Made by a program: the position numbers and the translations under genes. The notes under the pieces are model-generated. The model did no database searches, was not told the DNA's origin, and saw nothing but the letters and a program-made list of their open reading frames with translations. Below, piece after piece: positions 15,138-21,821 of a stretch of 23,473 nucleotides of DNA. This stretch comes from an uncultured bacterium (GTDB lineage Bacteria > Babelota > Babeliae > Babelales > RVW-14). The stretch spans positions 1 through 23,473 of the forward strand of contig CAVXAT010000016.1 in the NCBI GenBank assembly GCA_963759805.1, given 5' to 3'. Within the stretch, counting starts at the first letter, position 1, and the number at the start of each line of letters is the position of its first letter.

Positions 15138-16640
15138 TTAGAATGACAAGGAGAGCTTGCCCCATACCATCCAGTAGTTTGGTATGCTGTTCTCATTTGC
15201 CCAGTCATATTTTCCACCTACACCCAACAAGAGAGGATCTTTCCATTTCTTGAAGTGGTAGCCCAAACCGCCATAGATGCCGTTTGTGAATTGTGATGGA
15301 GTTTCTGCTTTCTCTATGTCAATGCTGTCGTTTGTGAGCCAATTTCCCTCAAGCAAAGGCGAGGAAGGGTTGCGATCAATGCCTGTAACATCGAATTCTA
15401 TTGGAGTCTCGTAATCATATTCATCCGCTGTCAACCAATCTCTTGCTGCTACTCCGAATGTATCGTGTGGAAGTGAGTGCTTGAGGCTTAGATCTTCATC
15501 TTCTCTGTAATACATATTGTAACCAAGGTCTGCACTGAATCCGCCATTGTTGTAAGCCAGTGCAAGGATACCATCAAATTGGCTGCCTGGGGTTACATTA
15601 ACGCCAAGTGGTGTCAATATGTTAACTGCAGGAATCAAGTCTACGTGTCCATCTTTGCCCAGCAAGACATATGGTGATGCATAACCCTTCAATTTTAGAG
15701 GTCTGTGCTCAGATGATTCGAACAGATAACGGTAGTTAGCTGCAAAGTTCAATTTGATATTTTGTTTGCCTTTGGTCCACAAGTTTGCATGTGCATCAAG
15801 TCCGCCACCAAATCCGAAGTGGGAGCCGTTGCCGTATATTGGTTCAAACATCTCTCTGCCGTTTGGCTTGTTGCCTGTTGGGATTGTTATTGCAAGGTTG
15901 ATACCGAAATGGTACTTATCTTTGTACAAGAACTTGTAACCAAGAATTACGTCGACGTCTGCAAACCCTGTCGCTGAATGTTCGTCTTTTATTAAACCAT
16001 AGTCAAGGGCAACTTGAGCGTCATTTGGAAATTCACCGTTGGTTGTCTGAAAATAATGACCGGTGAAGAACTCTGTTAACCAGGTTTCGTAATCTTCTGG
16101 TGTGTATCCTCCCTCAGAACCCTGAATACCCTCGACGTTCAACTCCATATCATTTTCTACGCGAACAACTGTTGTGTTTACCTTGAGGTAAAGACCCTTT
16201 AGAAGTTTGTCCATGTTTTGGTAGTAATCAAAACGTGCGCCGTATGATTTTGAGCTTGGATCTAATGATACAGTTGCGATTGCGCCTTCATCTCCACCTA
16301 GAGAACCGTGGAGTATATACCCAAGATCGAAATCATCCTTTTCTGTTGATTTTGTATTAGCGATAGGGTCGCCTTTTAATCTATATGTGCTGTCGCCGTT
16401 AATACCAAAGTAACTACCGAAATTACCGTTTGATTCCCCATAGAAACCGGATATTTGTAAATTTCCACCGAAACGGTGTTCCAACTTGAGTTGTGTTCTC
16501 TCATAGAATGTTGTGAGTTCCATTGGAAGATTTACGTTTGTACTACGTAAGTTCATGTATGTGTGTTCTGTGTGTGCCGAGATGTTATTTGCGCTTACTG
16601 CCAATGCAGCAAGCATTAGATATTTTATTGATTTATTCAT
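15138..16640 (-). CDS. Putative outer-membrane beta-barrel protein, paralog 1 (500 aa)
   Basis: Signal peptide, Gly/aromatic alternating strands and C-terminal WGKLSLSF beta-signal; GGAG...AAGG upstream. Confidence 0.8.
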   Translation of the reverse strand: MNKSIKYLMLAALAVSANNISAHTEHTYMNLRSTNVNLPMELTTFYERTQLKLEHRFGGNLQISGFYGESNGNFGSYFGINGDSTYRLKGDPIANTKSTEKDDFDLGYILHGSLGGDEGAIATVSLDPSSKSYGARFDYYQNMDKLLKGLYLKVNTTVVRVENDMELNVEGIQGSEGGYTPEDYETWLTEFFTGHYFQTTNGEFPNDAQVALDYGLIKDEHSATGFADVDVILGYKFLYKDKYHFGINLAITIPTGNKPNGREMFEPIYGNGSHFGFGGGLDAHANLWTKGKQNIKLNFAANYRYLFESSEHRPLKLKGYASPYVLLGKDGHVDLIPAVNILTPLGVNVTPGSQFDGILALAYNNGGFSADLGYNMYYREDEDLSLKHSLPHDTFGVAARDWLTADEYDYETPIEFDVTGIDRNPSSPLLEGNWLTNDSIDIEKAETPSQFTNGIYGGLGYHFKKWKDPLLLGVGGKYDWANENSIPNYWMVWGKLSLSF

Positions 16641-16953: not shown

Positions 16954-18402
16954 TTAGAATGACAGGGAGAGTTTGCCCCATACCATCCAGGAGTTTGGTA
17001 TGCTGTTCTCATTTGCCCAATCATATTTTCCACCAATACCCATCAAGAAAGGATATTCCCATTTCTTGAAGTGGTAGCCCAAACCGCCGTAGATGCCGTT
17101 TGTGAGTTGTGATGGAGTTGCTGCTGCATCTTCATCAACGTCTTTTCTTGAGATCCAGGCAGTTTCCTCACCATCGAAGTCGATTGGGTTTGTACCGAAA
17201 GTATAGTTTTCTAAATTAGTTCTATAAAATACTGATGCTACACCAAATCTGTCTTCTTCAATTTTGCCTCTGAAGTCAACATCCTCTTCATCTCTGTAGT
17301 AAAGGTTGTAACCTAGGTCTGCACTGAATCCGCCGTTGTTATAAGCTAATGCCAAAATACCATCAAATTGGCTGCCTGGTGTTACATCAACACCATTGTG
17401 TGACAAAACATTAACTGCAGGTATCAATGGCGCATTTACAGTGGAGCTATCGCCCAAAAGAACGTAAGGGGATAGATAATCCTTCAACTTAAGAGGTCTG
17501 TGCTCAGATGCTTCGAACAGATAACGGTAGTTAGCTGCAAAGTTCAATTTGATGTTTTGTTCGTGTTTGGTCCACAGGTTTGCATGTGCATCAAGTCCGC
17601 CACCAAATCCGAAGTGGGAGCCGTTGCCGTATATTGGTTCAAACAGTAGTTTACCATCTGGTTCTTCGCCTGTTGGGATTGTGATTGCAATGTTGATACC
17701 GAAGTGGTACTTGTCTTTGTACAAGAACTTGTAACCAAGAATTACATCGATATCAGCAAGACCTGTTTCGTTGTGCTCGCCTTTAATTAAACCACGTTCA
17801 ACTTCTTCTTGTGCATTACCTGGATCTGTAGCATTTGTTTGTTCATATTTGCCGGTGAAAAATTTATAAAGGTTTGTTTGCATTGCTGAGTCGGAACTAT
17901 GTACGCCCAAATCCATATCATTTTCTACACAAACGATCGTTGTGTTTACCTTGAGGTAGAGACCCTTTAGAAGTTTGTCCATGTTCTGGTAGTAATCAAA
18001 ACGTGCGCCGTATGATTCGGTTTCTGGATTGTATGAAACTTTTGCTGGGGTATCTTCGATCTCATGAGCCCAATCGTGAATCAAATAACGTAAAACAGTG
18101 TCGGCTGTTGCTGGAGTTGCATCACGTTGTGCTGCTGTGCCTAGTATATATGTGCTGTCACCATTCATACCAAAATAGCTGCCGAAATTACCGTTTGATT
18201 CTCCGTAGAAACCAGATACTTGTAAATTTCCACCAAAACGGTGGTCCAACTTCATTTGTGTTCTCTCATAGAATGTTGTAAGTTCCATTGGAAGATTTAC
18301 ATTGGAGCTTTTCAAGTTCATATATGTGTGGTCTGAGTGTGCCGAGATGTTTGAACTTACTGCCATTGCAGCAAGCGCTAGATATTTTATTGATTTATTC
18401 AT
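16954..18402 (-). CDS. Putative outer-membrane beta-barrel protein, paralog 2 (482 aa)
   Basis: Long blocks identical to paralog 1 (e.g. EPIYGNGSHFGFGGGLDAHANLWTK), the same MNKSIKYL start and the same WGKLSLSF end. Confidence 0.8.
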   Translation of the reverse strand: MNKSIKYLALAAMAVSSNISAHSDHTYMNLKSSNVNLPMELTTFYERTQMKLDHRFGGNLQVSGFYGESNGNFGSYFGMNGDSTYILGTAAQRDATPATADTVLRYLIHDWAHEIEDTPAKVSYNPETESYGARFDYYQNMDKLLKGLYLKVNTTIVCVENDMDLGVHSSDSAMQTNLYKFFTGKYEQTNATDPGNAQEEVERGLIKGEHNETGLADIDVILGYKFLYKDKYHFGINIAITIPTGEEPDGKLLFEPIYGNGSHFGFGGGLDAHANLWTKHEQNIKLNFAANYRYLFEASEHRPLKLKDYLSPYVLLGDSSTVNAPLIPAVNVLSHNGVDVTPGSQFDGILALAYNNGGFSADLGYNLYYRDEEDVDFRGKIEEDRFGVASVFYRTNLENYTFGTNPIDFDGEETAWISRKDVDEDAAATPSQLTNGIYGGLGYHFKKWEYPFLMGIGGKYDWANENSIPNSWMVWGKLSLSF

Positions 18403-19069
18403 TTACTTTTTCTCCGAAAATGCTGTGTAATATTATATTAAGGACTACGTTTTTAAATATTTACGACACCTGAGCCGTAAATATTTAAGCATCAACAACA
18501 TCGAATTAGAAGATTTTCTTTGTTATCGCGCCCTCCTTTCTTTGAATTAATAGATCGCGTGCTTGACACCGACACCGCCATCACTATCATAATTTAATGT
18601 GTTGAATCTATATGATGCTAAGGTGCTCCTCTTCACGTGAACTTGGCGTACTACTCATTGATGCTGATATTCTACGTGGTATTTACTTGCGTACCAAAGC
18701 CCACCTTGACGTTGATAGATTAATCGTGTTTTTAAAAGATATCAAGTATTTTTTTGTTAGCCTGTTAATAGCTTTTTATTTTCACACAAATAATTTATTG
18801 TGTGAATGATAACCATATTTAAAATATCTGTTTCGAGGCATTTATGTTTATCACTTTTGTTAATTACTTTTCCAGTCTAAAATACAAGATACTGGTTTTG
18901 TAAACAAAATGATTAAAAAAAATGTTTTGCCTTTATTTAAAAGGGTTTTTGAGTTTTAGTTTTCTGATTTTTGAAGATAACCCCAATGGATATTTTCGGT
19001 TATTTTTGATTTTGTCCCAAAACTATAAAAAATTTTTATGGGATCAATGAAGAACTCAATAAAATAAAA

Positions 19070-19113
19070 CTGGACCATGCCTGTTCCGAGTTTAGGAACA
19101 AATAATGGTCCAG
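19070..19113 (-). terminator. Putative terminator downstream of the large proline-rich gene
   Basis: ctggaccat..tgttcc-gagttta-ggaaca..atggtccag stem, followed on the minus strand by ttttatttt, about 20 bp after the stop at 19135. Confidence 0.6.
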
Positions 19114-19134
19114 GTTAGTTATCGGTTGTTTATT

Positions 19135-19440
19135 CTATTGTTCTTTCGTTGCATGGGCTTCTGCTTGTGGCTGTTGCACCTCTTGCTGTTTTGCTTTGGT
19201 TTTTTGAACCTTGACTGCCTCTGCTTTCGCTTTGGCTTGTGCTGCTGCTTTTTTTGCAGAATCTAACTGTGGCTTAAGTATATCAATTTCTTTATTTATA
19301 GAGTCTTCTTCATCAGGGGCCATAGCTTTCCGGCGGTTTAAAACCGCTATCTTCGACTTTAGCTGTTGGAATTCATTTTCCAGTTTTATGGCATCTTGTT
19401 CTTCAGGGGATTTATTGGCAAATTCTACAAATTGTTTTGC
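19135..19440 (-). CDS. Frameshifted C-terminal continuation (~101 aa, coiled-coil-like) of the proline-rich WH2 protein
   Basis: Frame open across 19440 to the stop at 19135 (AKQFVEFANKSPEEQDAIKLENEFQQLKSK...MAPDEED...TKEQ), with the same Ala/Lys/Glu composition as the upstream ORF. Confidence 0.75.
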   Translation of the reverse strand, partial: AKQFVEFANKSPEEQDAIKLENEFQQLKSKIAVLNRRKAMAPDEEDSINKEIDILKPQLDSAKKAAAQAKAKAEAVKVQKTKAKQQEVQQPQAEAHATKEQ

Positions 19441-21733
19441 TTTTTTCTTCTTCTATTTCTGCTGGTGTTGCAAGTTTTGCTTTTTTTCTTTCTTCTTCTG
19501 CTACTGCTTTTATGGGAGCCCCTTCTCCTGTTGCCGCAGTAAGAGTCCATGCTTTTTCATCGGGCCCATTTGCTTCTGCTTTTGTTGCCGCTGGCTCTGC
19601 TGGTGTTGTTCCCGATTGCTTAAAAGCACCTCTCAAAATATCGGTTAGGCTACGTCCTTCTAGCCCAGCCTTTTCAGCTTGTTCTTGAGTAAGGGGGGCG
19701 GGTTTGCGTTTCCCAACCGGTCGAAGTTTTTTCCCACTTTGTATCTCCGCCATCAGGTCGGGCCGCTCAGTTCCACTAGGTAGTTGCGATGGTTTTTTTG
19801 CAGTACCTTCTTCAGTGACAGTCTCTGCAGTTCCTTTAGGCTTCCAATTTGCTGGTGGCAATGGTGGTGGTGGAGTGGTAGCTTGTGCAGTTTCCTCTGC
19901 GGTAGTCGGTGTAGCAGCTTCAACAGATTTTGCCGTTGGTTCGGCAACCGGTGTTGTGGATGGTTTGGCCGCTACGGGAGTGGCAGCGATTTCTGCAGGT
20001 TTTGCAGCTTCAGCGGTAGGTTTGGGTTTAGCACCCCATTCTGGCATTGGAGGTGGTGGTGTGGTGGATTCTGTGCTTGGTCTAATTGTCTTAATCGTTT
20101 GAAGGGCTGTCCTAGAAGTTTCAATTGTCAATTCTAACTTCCCAACCAGAGTCATAAGCTCCCCATTGTATTTTTTTGAGATGGCGGTTCTTCGTGTAAG
20201 AATTTTCTGCATTTCTGGAGTTAATGCTTTAGTTTGGGGATGGGCGTTAAATTCTTCTATTCCAGGAATTTTAGCTATTTCAGCGTCGATTAATTTTTGG
20301 TTTTGCTCGATTTTTGTGTTAAGTTCAATCAGTGTAGCCTCTTTCCCTTTCAAGTCTTCTTCCATGCTTTTGATAGTAGGCGCATCTAGTCCTGTAACAA
20401 CTTTCTGACGTTCGGCTGTTAGTTCGGCTATTTTTTTAGTGGCAGCATCAAGATCTCCTTTTGCCACTGATGCATCAGCTAATCTTTTTTTATCCGCTTC
20501 ATAACCTTTTTTCACTTCTTGCTTATTTGCCAGTTCGCTTGTCCATCTGGCCATATCGCTATCAAAACCTGGTATAGCCCGTCTAGCAAACTCTAAATCA
20601 GTTTTTGCTTTTTGATATTCGGCTGAACTTCTACCAAATTTTGCAGCGGCTTCTGCTGCTTCTAATTGAGGCTTAATTTGAGCTCTTAAGCCATCTATTC
20701 GTGCTTGTAGCTTAGATGTATCCATATCAGTCGACCGACTCATCATTTCTAGGAATTCGACACCAACTTTTGGAGTAGCGGCTATCTGTGCTTTTAATTG
20801 TTTTGCTTTTTCTTTTTCTTGTGCTAAAGAATCACCTAATCCAATTAATTTTGTTTTGACGGTGCCGACAACAACTTCAACGTCCTTCTTTTTTGCGGTC
20901 TCTTCCTTCTCTGCGGCCGTCCTTTTAGGAGCAGGAGGCAGTGGAGTCGATGGAACAGCATATTTAACAGTAGGTTTCTCAGGTTCTTCAGCAGGAATAG
21001 CTGGTGCGGGCCTGTGTGGGGTTGTAGCAGGTTCAGTGCGTTTGGGAGCGGGCGGTGGAGGCACTGGGTGAGTAGGAAGAATATGAGCAGGTTTAGCCGC
21101 AACAGCTTCAACAGGTTCTACTGCTGTTCCAGGTTTATTCGTTCTATCTACAGCAGGCGGAGGCGGTGCGGGCGGTGCATGATGAGGAGGAATATGTGTA
21201 GCAGGAACAGGTTGTCCAGCCCCTGGTTGTAATTCCATAAATCTCTTTCCTATTTCCAATGTTTTAAACTTGCTTTTTAGATCCGGGGCTTCTAGTGTCC
21301 CCTTAATGAGTTCTTGCCAATGAGCTTGGGCGGCTGCGTGTTTAGCGGTGGCCTCTTTAACGGTAGGAACGGTAGGAGCAAGTCCAAAAACTGCTTTGAC
21401 TCTATCGAATGTAGAAGTTTGTTTCGCTTTAGTTATTCCAGCCAGAGTATCATTATGTTCTGTTAGTGCTTTATTGATTATGGATTCTAACTGGTTATGG
21501 TTAGGATCTTTTTTAACTTCAGTTATTAGATCTCGTGCTTGTTGGCGTGCTTCCTCCGGGGTTCTCACTTTGCCAATCCCCAAAGAGCTTTTTATTTTAC
21601 TGAAAGCTGATGGTTCTTCTTGTGGGGCTCTTCTTTCCTCTGTTGGGAATCTCCGTTCCTCCATTCCATAACAAAAGCTGCAAATCATTAAAGCGCTGAT
21701 TAAAAAAGATAGCCGTTTATTATTTTCACTCAT
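19412..21733 (-). CDS. Secreted proline-rich coiled-coil protein with a WH2 actin-binding motif (WASP/RickA-like effector candidate)
   Basis: ATG 21733 follows AAAGGA (track start 21772). Signal peptide, polyproline tracts, coiled coil and ERPDLMAEIQSGKKLRPV WH2 consensus. Confidence 0.75.
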   Translation of the reverse strand: MSENNKRLSFLISALMICSFCYGMEERRFPTEERRAPQEEPSAFSKIKSSLGIGKVRTPEEARQQARDLITEVKKDPNHNQLESIINKALTEHNDTLAGITKAKQTSTFDRVKAVFGLAPTVPTVKEATAKHAAAQAHWQELIKGTLEAPDLKSKFKTLEIGKRFMELQPGAGQPVPATHIPPHHAPPAPPPPAVDRTNKPGTAVEPVEAVAAKPAHILPTHPVPPPPAPKRTEPATTPHRPAPAIPAEEPEKPTVKYAVPSTPLPPAPKRTAAEKEETAKKKDVEVVVGTVKTKLIGLGDSLAQEKEKAKQLKAQIAATPKVGVEFLEMMSRSTDMDTSKLQARIDGLRAQIKPQLEAAEAAAKFGRSSAEYQKAKTDLEFARRAIPGFDSDMARWTSELANKQEVKKGYEADKKRLADASVAKGDLDAATKKIAELTAERQKVVTGLDAPTIKSMEEDLKGKEATLIELNTKIEQNQKLIDAEIAKIPGIEEFNAHPQTKALTPEMQKILTRRTAISKKYNGELMTLVGKLELTIETSRTALQTIKTIRPSTESTTPPPPMPEWGAKPKPTAEAAKPAEIAATPVAAKPSTTPVAEPTAKSVEAATPTTAEETAQATTPPPPLPPANWKPKGTAETVTEEGTAKKPSQLPSGTERPDLMAEIQSGKKLRPVGKRKPAPLTQEQAEKAGLEGRSLTDILRGAFKQSGTTPAEPAATKAEANGPDEKAWTLTAATGEGAPIKAVAEEERKKAKLATPAEIEEEKSKTICRICQ

Positions 21734-21821
21734 AAAAAACAGTCCTTTCACCTTTCTCCGCCAGACATACAAATTTTAACTGAATATTAAAATAAAAATT
21801 CTAGTATCCAAAAGTCAATAA

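Follow-up and report, generated by a model that had tools for sequence, protein, structure and literature searches.

The window considered here is the whole stretch of DNA that was analysed, the 23,473 nucleotides of contig CAVXAT010000016.1 (assembly GCA_963759805.1), which belongs to a metagenome-assembled genome (MAG) from the Babeliales in the Dependentiae, or TM6. We found that a gene on its minus strand encodes a protein of 773 residues with an export-type N-terminus in which proline-rich sequence is followed by a WH2 motif (W), the type of motif that binds G-actin, and by a helix that is, by alignment, homologous to the connector (C) helix of complete WASP-like modules in genomes of the same genus. 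The acidic segment (A) and the other residues through which such modules engage the Arp2/3 complex appear to be degraded. An original prediction, made from the letters of the DNA and its open reading frames, had described the protein as a candidate secreted mimic of the WASP, WAVE and RickA activators of actin assembly, and the motifs on which it drew are all present at the places that it gave. The genome that contains the window (G000) is an assembly of 1.50 Mb in 21 contigs and is 88.7% complete; we compared it with the same-genus or sister genomes G001, G002 and G003. The window also carries genes of the usual bacterial kind, for SmpB, FtsY, PrmC, AspRS and Sua5, and its AspRS is 86-87% identical to that of MAGs labelled Candidatus Babeliales. 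The features of the gene for the 773-residue protein are as follows, with positions in the window and residues counted from the methionine at 21733.

19412-21733, minus strand: gene for the exported-type protein of 773 residues (stop codon at 19412-19414, coding sequence at 19415-21733)
21789-21818, minus strand: promoter-like -35/-10 pair upstream of the gene, a consensus match only
21665-21733, minus strand: signal-peptide-like N-terminus, residues 1-23, with a basic n-region and then a hydrophobic core
21380-21664, minus strand: leader region, to about residue 118, common to the genes at the same position in G002 and G003
20909-21196, minus strand: proline-rich region 1, residues 180-275, with two runs of four prolines (P4) and two PPAPKRT motifs, predicted disordered
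20084-20902, minus strand: helical domain, residues 278-550, long helices in an AlphaFold2 single-sequence model (predicted local distance difference test, pLDDT, about 70-91)
19838-20068, minus strand: proline-rich region 2, residues 556-632, with two TTPPPP-x-P...W units about 62 residues apart, predicted disordered
19715-19768, minus strand: WH2 motif, residues 656-673, sub-threshold with Pfam and matched by a Babeliales profile, by hhalign and by BLASTP to a module of G001
19616-19657, minus strand: C-like amphipathic helix, residues 693-706, hydrophobic face kept and basic pair lost
19541-19570, minus strand: vestigial A-like spot with Trp729, not acidic and outside the profile match
19415-19540, minus strand: charged tail of 42 residues, predicted to form a terminal helix and ending C-x-x-C-Q

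The open frame occupies 19412-21772 on the minus strand and has 786 codons when counted from a TTG, while the most likely start is the ATG at 21733, which gives the 773 residues. This choice is favoured by an AAGGA sequence about 11 nt upstream of the ATG, by the promoter-like pair, and by the genes at the same position in G002 and G003, which start at the equivalent methionine and encode a near-identical hydrophobic leader. The database gene call (758 residues) starts 15 codons further in. Repeats at the DNA level inside the gene amounted to short compositional matches only.

WH2 (PF02205) was the top Pfam match of the protein (15.0 bits, E 0.02 with hmmscan) and, in a six-frame scan of G000, the sole WH2 match in the genome (19.3 bits, E 0.0022). 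The Pfam search that was suggested as a check on the original prediction thus supported it in rank and in uniqueness and fell short in score, both values being under the cut-off. Eight of 14 control genomes also gave WH2 matches at E ≤ 10, none of them over the cut-off and none at E ≤ 0.01. A WH2 call made with Pfam alone is suggestive only. The motif itself has the anatomy of WH2, a short amphipathic helix with L-[LM]-x-x-I and then G-x-x-L-[KR]-[KP]-V, and it aligns column for column with 12 WH2 motifs from other Babeliales, including the nearly invariant L7, I11, G14 and L17. With this anatomy, and with the match to a Babeliales profile described below, the predicted WH2 stands as a real motif of that type.

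WH2 motifs proved to be widespread in the order. The Pfam model matched eight of 35 genomes at E ≤ 0.01 in a scan of the family (six over the cut-off) and 24 of 261 Babeliales genomes at E ≤ 0.001 in a scan of the order (20 over the cut-off, in seven of 21 families), and in each case none of the 14 controls. Many of the frames detected encode textbook Pro-W-C-A proteins, with a signal-peptide-like N-terminus, a proline tract, WH2, a linker, a helix ending in RR and a run of D and E residues; a tryptophan lies within this long acidic run, which often supplies the last residues of the protein. Examples are found in G060 (locus L037), G216 (L038), G054, G169 and G234 and, within the same genus, in G001 and G002. 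We aligned 12 Babeliales W-C-A modules, leaving the window protein out, to make a profile of 68 positions (A1). Among proteins of the PDB this profile matched N-WASP (6uhc_H, E 1.1e-17, profile positions 3-65 on N-WASP 429-491) and WAVE1 (3p8c_D, E 4.5e-8, profile positions 1-65), and also Spire, WASP, WIP, VopL, Cordon-bleu, INF2 and MIM (18 distinct sequences, E ≤ 1), the VopL WH2 peptide 3m1f_V being matched at E 0.0041. The matches to N-WASP and WAVE1 indicate that the modules of the relatives are WASP-like over W, C and A. Across the order A1 matched 34 of the 261 genomes at E ≤ 0.001, in nine of 21 families; 12 of these supplied the training modules and match by construction, one is G000 and 21 are independent.

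The window gene was the sole match to A1 in G000 (24.2 bits, E 5.4e-5, window 19631-19768, profile positions 3-42 of 68), and in five unrelated genomes of 2.4-4.4 Mb the profile had no match at E ≤ 1. Alignment of A1 with the window protein by hhalign gave E 4.1e-5 (probability 70%) over columns 3-47 and residues 669-718 of the 786-residue frame. BLASTP matched the C-terminal 132 residues of the window protein to the W-C-A protein of G001 (22 of 50 positions identical, two gaps, E 1e-5) in an alignment that spans WH2, linker and C helix, with the length of the linker conserved; in the C helix seven of 13 positions are identical, and the hydrophobic face lies at the canonical spacing after W. 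By these alignments the C-like helix of the window protein is homologous to the C helix of the Pro-W-C-A modules in its genus. Since the similarity of those modules to N-WASP and WAVE1 covers W, C and A, WASP, WAVE and RickA were the right frame in which to compare the protein. A survey of homologues, also proposed with the original prediction, divided the protein in two. The W-linker-C stretch is homologous to the W-C-A modules of sister genomes; the protein as a whole has no detected homologue, an exhaustive phmmer search of 1.84 billion representative sequences returning only the query, a word-indexed search of 5.8 billion proteins returning the query alone among 8000 scored candidates, and a search of 60 relatives' genomes, three of them of the same genus, giving nothing at E ≤ 0.01. 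A sequence search of the PDB with the C-terminal 162 residues gave chance matches to SRP54 only (E about 0.8), and the Protein Atlas held no usable match to the window protein.

The correspondence with a complete module stops within C. We took the definition of WCA in WASP-family proteins from the available text of PMC10330494. Of the 68 positions of A1 the match extends no further than position 42, which lies inside the C helix and before A. The RR pair that follows this helix in 10 of the 12 Babeliales modules is S-G in the window protein. Trp729 is present, in the sequence GPDEKAW (19547-19567), and the 16 residues around it have a net charge of -1, compared with acidic runs of eight or more in the relatives; 22 residues separate it from the C helix and a further 44 follow it. 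As far as these comparisons go, the protein has kept two parts of an ancestral WCA module, WH2 and the hydrophobic face of C, and the parts that engage Arp2/3 have degraded. The original prediction had cautioned that its C segment lacked the usual basic residues and that its A segment was only weakly acidic, and it was correct on both counts. Its C segment survives in hydrophobic face and homology and fails in the basic pair, while its A segment is reduced to a tryptophan. Two defining features of an Arp2/3 activator, the basic pair and an acidic cluster around Trp, were looked for and are missing, so we have not assigned the protein to the WASP-type activators.

The sequence ahead of the module is rich in proline, with P4 runs at residues 190-193, 225-228, 559-562 and 621-624; the last two place a proline-rich region directly upstream of W (residues 656-673). 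Such runs are rare in G000, where only three of 1218 stop-to-stop frames of at least 150 residues have any, and the frame of the window protein holds four. The PPAPKRT motifs of the first proline-rich region presumably fit the PxxPxR pattern of SH3 ligands. In the single-sequence AlphaFold2 model (mean pLDDT 51.7) the long helices of residues 278-550 are flanked by disorder, the helical leader region extends to about residue 145, and a short helix is predicted with low confidence at residues 696-704, within C. Foldseek found nothing in the PDB at E ≤ 0.001 with the full model, the best and non-significant rows being generic coiled-coil arms of SMC proteins and chemoreceptors. Complex prediction with two copies of residues 278-550 scored 0.00 against a mark of 0.32, a result that speaks neither for nor against oligomerisation. 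The C-terminus was considered as a CaaX-type prenylation signal and rejected: a CaaX box has its cysteine at position -4, and those of the C-x-x-C-Q ending (window 19415-19429) are at -5 and -2.

The N-terminal part of the protein has a different affiliation from its W-C stretch. The genes at the same position in G002 (L033:4052-6667) and G003 (L034:2846-5863) encode large exported-type proteins; each immediately follows the Cu-oxidase_4 and Sua5 genes, shares their strand and has a porin-like gene downstream. By tblastn the leader of the window protein matched the G002 gene at 38.8% identity over 98 residues (E 8e-9, residues 1-97) and the G003 gene at 34% over 129 residues (E 1.3e-6, residues 1-118), and both matches were also obtained by BLASTP. 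The two sister genes end in a conserved, unrelated domain of about 350 residues that has no WH2, belongs to no Pfam family and has no relative in the PDB; it is probably another effector domain. That the leader matches sister genes with a different ending points to a chimeric origin for the window protein. The canonical W-C-A gene of this genus lies elsewhere, flanked by a TPR gene and dnaE, in G001 (L027:8011-9363) and G002 (L028:5147-7114). In G000 these two flanking genes are 24 bp apart (contig C9:15753-16355), which leaves no W-C-A gene between them, and a search of G000 with the W-C-A protein of G002 gave nothing at E ≤ 1. Three other genomes of the family, G009, G010 and G023, encode proteins of similar architecture, and the window's neighbour genes are absent near those loci. 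The simplest account of this arrangement is module shuffling, in which a W-C(-A) module would have come to sit on the leader of another effector; we infer it from the two sets of matches. Reuse of leaders fits with a paralogue of 236 residues elsewhere in G000 (contig C12:2935-3660, minus strand) that has nearly the same signal peptide (19 of 25 positions identical).

In this paralogue, which has no WH2, proline-rich motifs are accompanied by an acidic D-E-E-W that lies seven residues short of the C-terminus. From these motifs it might be an 'A-only' Arp2/3-binding protein.

The signal-peptide-like N-terminus of the window protein is conserved in G002, in G003 and in the C12 paralogue. When WH2-pattern frames were scored with a crude measure of N-terminal hydrophobicity, 23 of the 24 with a complete N-terminus reached the threshold; the sole miss was a dnaE fragment picked up by the regex only, and another frame could not be scored for want of a methionine. 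The G000 baseline for this measure is high (359 of 756 long frames), so the check lends weak support to export. Three secretin genes were identified in G000; searches for FHIPEP (type III or flagellar) and VirB4 (type IV) found neither in the 88.7% of the genome that is available. In the accessible parts of the literature, type II components are described as common to TM6 genomes (PMC4776705), and Chromulinavorax is reported to have signal peptides in 44% of its coding sequences, to produce outer-membrane vesicles and, as C. destructans, to enter the host cytoplasm (PMC6561590).

Taken together, the layout of the protein, the homology of its W-linker-C stretch to canonical modules, that of its leader to sister genes, and the secretins of the genome incline us to see it, on balance, as a chimeric Babeliales effector that is exported through Sec and probably a type II system, that targets host G-actin and proline-binding proteins, and in which activation of Arp2/3 has been weakened or lost. 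The observed part of this account is the anatomy, the two homologies and the secretins; export to the host, the binding of actin and what would follow from it we infer. Once the signal peptide had brought the protein through the inner membrane, it would be released towards the host by a secretin-based system or in outer-membrane vesicles. Within the cytosol of the host, its two disordered proline-rich regions could recruit profilin-actin and host proteins of the SH3 or WW type, the single WH2 could bind one G-actin monomer, and the adjacent C-derived helix might add a second weak contact, with the helical domain of 270 residues serving as a spacer or as a platform for assembly. The W-C stretch would descend from the complete WASP-like W-C-A module of the sister genomes and would have been placed on the leader of a different effector. 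With C deprived of its basic pair and A of its acidic cluster, activation of Arp2/3 is probably weak or lost as well. By analogy with TARP, BimA and VASP, the delivery or sequestration of actin monomers, or filament assembly that does not depend on Arp2/3, seems a more likely function than that of a full nucleation-promoting factor.

Several points weigh against this account. The Pfam scores for WH2 (15.0 and 19.3 bits) are below the gathering threshold of 23.1 bits. The whole protein has no homologue among the 1.84 billion representatives or in the genomes of 60 relatives, and its W-C part has no orthologue in which conservation could be seen. The structural model is a single-sequence prediction with a mean pLDDT of 51.7 in which the WH2 and C helices have low confidence. 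About half of the long frames of G000 pass the same hydrophobicity check as the WH2-pattern frames. The tryptophan is retained, and some activity of the WASP-family kind could survive with a weak A segment. A Sec/type II substrate would, moreover, have to cross a vacuolar membrane.

The activity put forward in the original prediction was that of a full WASP/WAVE/RickA-type factor, in which WH2 delivers actin while C and the Trp segment activate host Arp2/3. The order of proline-rich region, W, C-like helix and Trp is kept, as this would require, the W-C stretch is homologous to modules whose resemblance to N-WASP and WAVE1 takes in W, C and A, and no residue of A is more often cited as essential than Trp. 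Such a protein would nevertheless have to work with a module whose profile match stops at position 42 of 68, with S-G in place of the RR of 10 of 12 relatives, with a net charge of -1 around Trp where the relatives have long D/E runs, and with a Trp that is 22 residues away from C and 44 residues short of the C-terminus; we regard full activation as unlikely. We give more room, and still only a tentative place, to a broader proposal in which the Babeliales possess a large and quickly shuffling repertoire of WASP-like W-C-A modules that leave the cell through Sec/type II secretion. The window protein would then be a domain-swap product, a W-C module that was taken from a canonical activator, joined to the leader of another effector and deprived of what activates Arp2/3, and it would act either as an Arp2/3-independent assembly factor or as a decoy in competition with host WASP/SCAR proteins for actin monomers.

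A chance resemblance would dispense with actin altogether and make the protein a disordered, Pro/Ala-rich component of the envelope or a periplasm-spanning protein. WH2 is a short motif, here it scores under the Pfam cut-off, eight of the 14 ordinary genomes give WH2 matches at E ≤ 10, and the protein is an orphan, all of which such an origin would accommodate; yet the match does not end with WH2 but continues across a linker, the length of which is conserved, to the C helix of a canonical module from the same genus, the A1 profile reaches E 5.4e-5 in G000 and nothing in five unrelated genomes, and none of the 14 controls reaches E ≤ 0.01 with Pfam WH2. The four P4 tracts, in a genome where three of 1218 long frames have any, also fit a WASP-type context, and we consider a chance motif improbable. 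Less probable again is an actin-motility factor retained on the bacterial surface in the style of RickA, BimA or ActA, which would gather actin around the bacterium or its vacuole, or assemble it into tails. It would be built of the same blocks as RickA (proline-rich repeats with WCA; PMC2440523, available text) and BimA (WH2 with a proline-rich domain; PMC7858667, available text), and the entry of C. destructans into the host cytoplasm, as described in the accessible part of PMC6561590, would give it a place to act. In the window protein, however, we found neither a membrane anchor nor an autotransporter barrel nor any other Pfam domain, its C-terminus is a charged helix, and RickA is described in PMC2440523, as far as that text was available, as having no signal sequence, whereas the window protein has a signal-peptide-like N-terminus.

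The chimeric effector that we favour has partial counterparts among known proteins. It resembles the VCA/WCA region of the WASP family (N-WASP, WASP and WAVE/SCAR) in its upstream proline-rich sequence, its WH2, its short linker and its amphipathic C-type helix, and it differs in being a bacterial protein with a Sec signal-peptide-like N-terminus, in having no GBD, WH1 or SHD, in the loss of the basic pair of C and of the acidic cluster, and in the distance of its Trp from the C-terminus. In RickA of spotted-fever-group Rickettsia a proline-rich centre precedes a W-C-(A) arrangement at the C-terminus, and the protein reportedly acts on host actin through Arp2/3 (PMC2440523, available text). 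It shows no sequence homology to the window protein in the phmmer and word searches described above (1.84 billion representatives and 5.8 billion proteins), which found the query only, and it keeps a complete C and A that the window protein, from a different phylum with protist hosts, does not. BimA of Burkholderia and TARP of Chlamydia nucleate or elongate actin without a full CA. Like the window protein they combine one or two WH2 motifs with proline-rich sequence (for BimA, the available text of PMC7858667). They differ from it in that BimA is an anchored trimeric autotransporter and TARP a type III substrate, and we detected no anchor in the window protein and no type III system in its genome. 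VopL, which has a dimerisation domain in addition to three tandem WH2 motifs, reaches its host by type III injection. VopL and VopF of Vibrio are, like the window protein, bacterial WH2 effectors, and the VopL WH2 peptide 3m1f_V is matched by A1; the window protein, in contrast to VopL, has a single WH2 followed by a C-derived helix. The nearest counterparts are the Pro-W-C-A proteins of the Babeliales, which share the order of elements, the signal-peptide-like N-terminus, the proline tract and the spacing between WH2 and C. Unlike the window protein these keep RR and a long D/E run with Trp, and no similarity to it was detected outside W-C; the modules of G001 and G002 moreover lie near the N-terminus of their proteins, at a locus different from that of the window gene.

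The Dependentiae are widespread obligate parasites of protists, and to our knowledge almost nothing is known of their effectors beyond ankyrin repeats and hydrolases. Outside the subscription journals, which our search did not cover, we found no paper linking WH2, WASP or Arp2/3 activators to the Dependentiae, Babeliales, TM6, Babela, Vermiphilus or Chromulinavorax, and the three main genome papers on TM6/Dependentiae make no mention of actin effectors in the portions of their text that were searched. In this context the complete WASP-like modules that are common in the Babeliales are of more interest than the degenerate copy in the window protein. If the exported Pro-W-C-A family and its derived forms are what they appear to be, they would be the first concrete host-cytoskeleton effectors for the Dependentiae. 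The W-C-A proteins are short, modular and easily tested in vitro, and the W-C-A, W-C and W-only forms amount to a natural 'deletion series' from which the contribution of each part of WCA could be read. They also raise the question of how substrates of Sec and type II secretion get to host actin; were the domain-swap proposal true, a phylum lacking both type III and type IV secretion would be manipulating host actin by some other route into the host cytosol.

The Babeliales modules at loci L016-L057 occur in the forms of a complete C-terminal W-C-A, W-C without A, and tandem WH2 only. Several of the WH2 proteins of the order (L018, L019, L022, L024 and L045) have a short heptad-like L-x-x-L-x-x-x-L directly after the signal peptide, and a frame of G000 at contig C21:12438-12665 is matched by residues 1-68 of the G001 protein (35.5% identity, E 5.6e-5). 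The Cu-oxidase_4 (YfiH-like) gene of G001 is broken by one TAG and one TAA into two pieces (L031/L032, G001:C19:12277-12925), and its surroundings yielded nothing corresponding to the leader of the window gene.

Downstream of the gene about 1 kb (window 18403-19411) separates it from the next large gene, and the sole frame in this interval is one of 62 codons, rich in lysine and alanine, at 19135-19323 on the minus strand. Beyond it, at 15138-16640 and 16954-18402 on the minus strand, lie tandem paralogues that encode signal-peptide proteins of no Pfam family; they end in L-S-F, which we take to mark an outer-membrane barrel. Both match a single gene of G002 and G003 at 61-66% identity, which indicates a lineage-specific duplication. 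One of the two other G000 frames with a P4 run, at contig C18:44037-45194, contains H-P-F-x-D-G-N-G-R, presumably a Fic motif.

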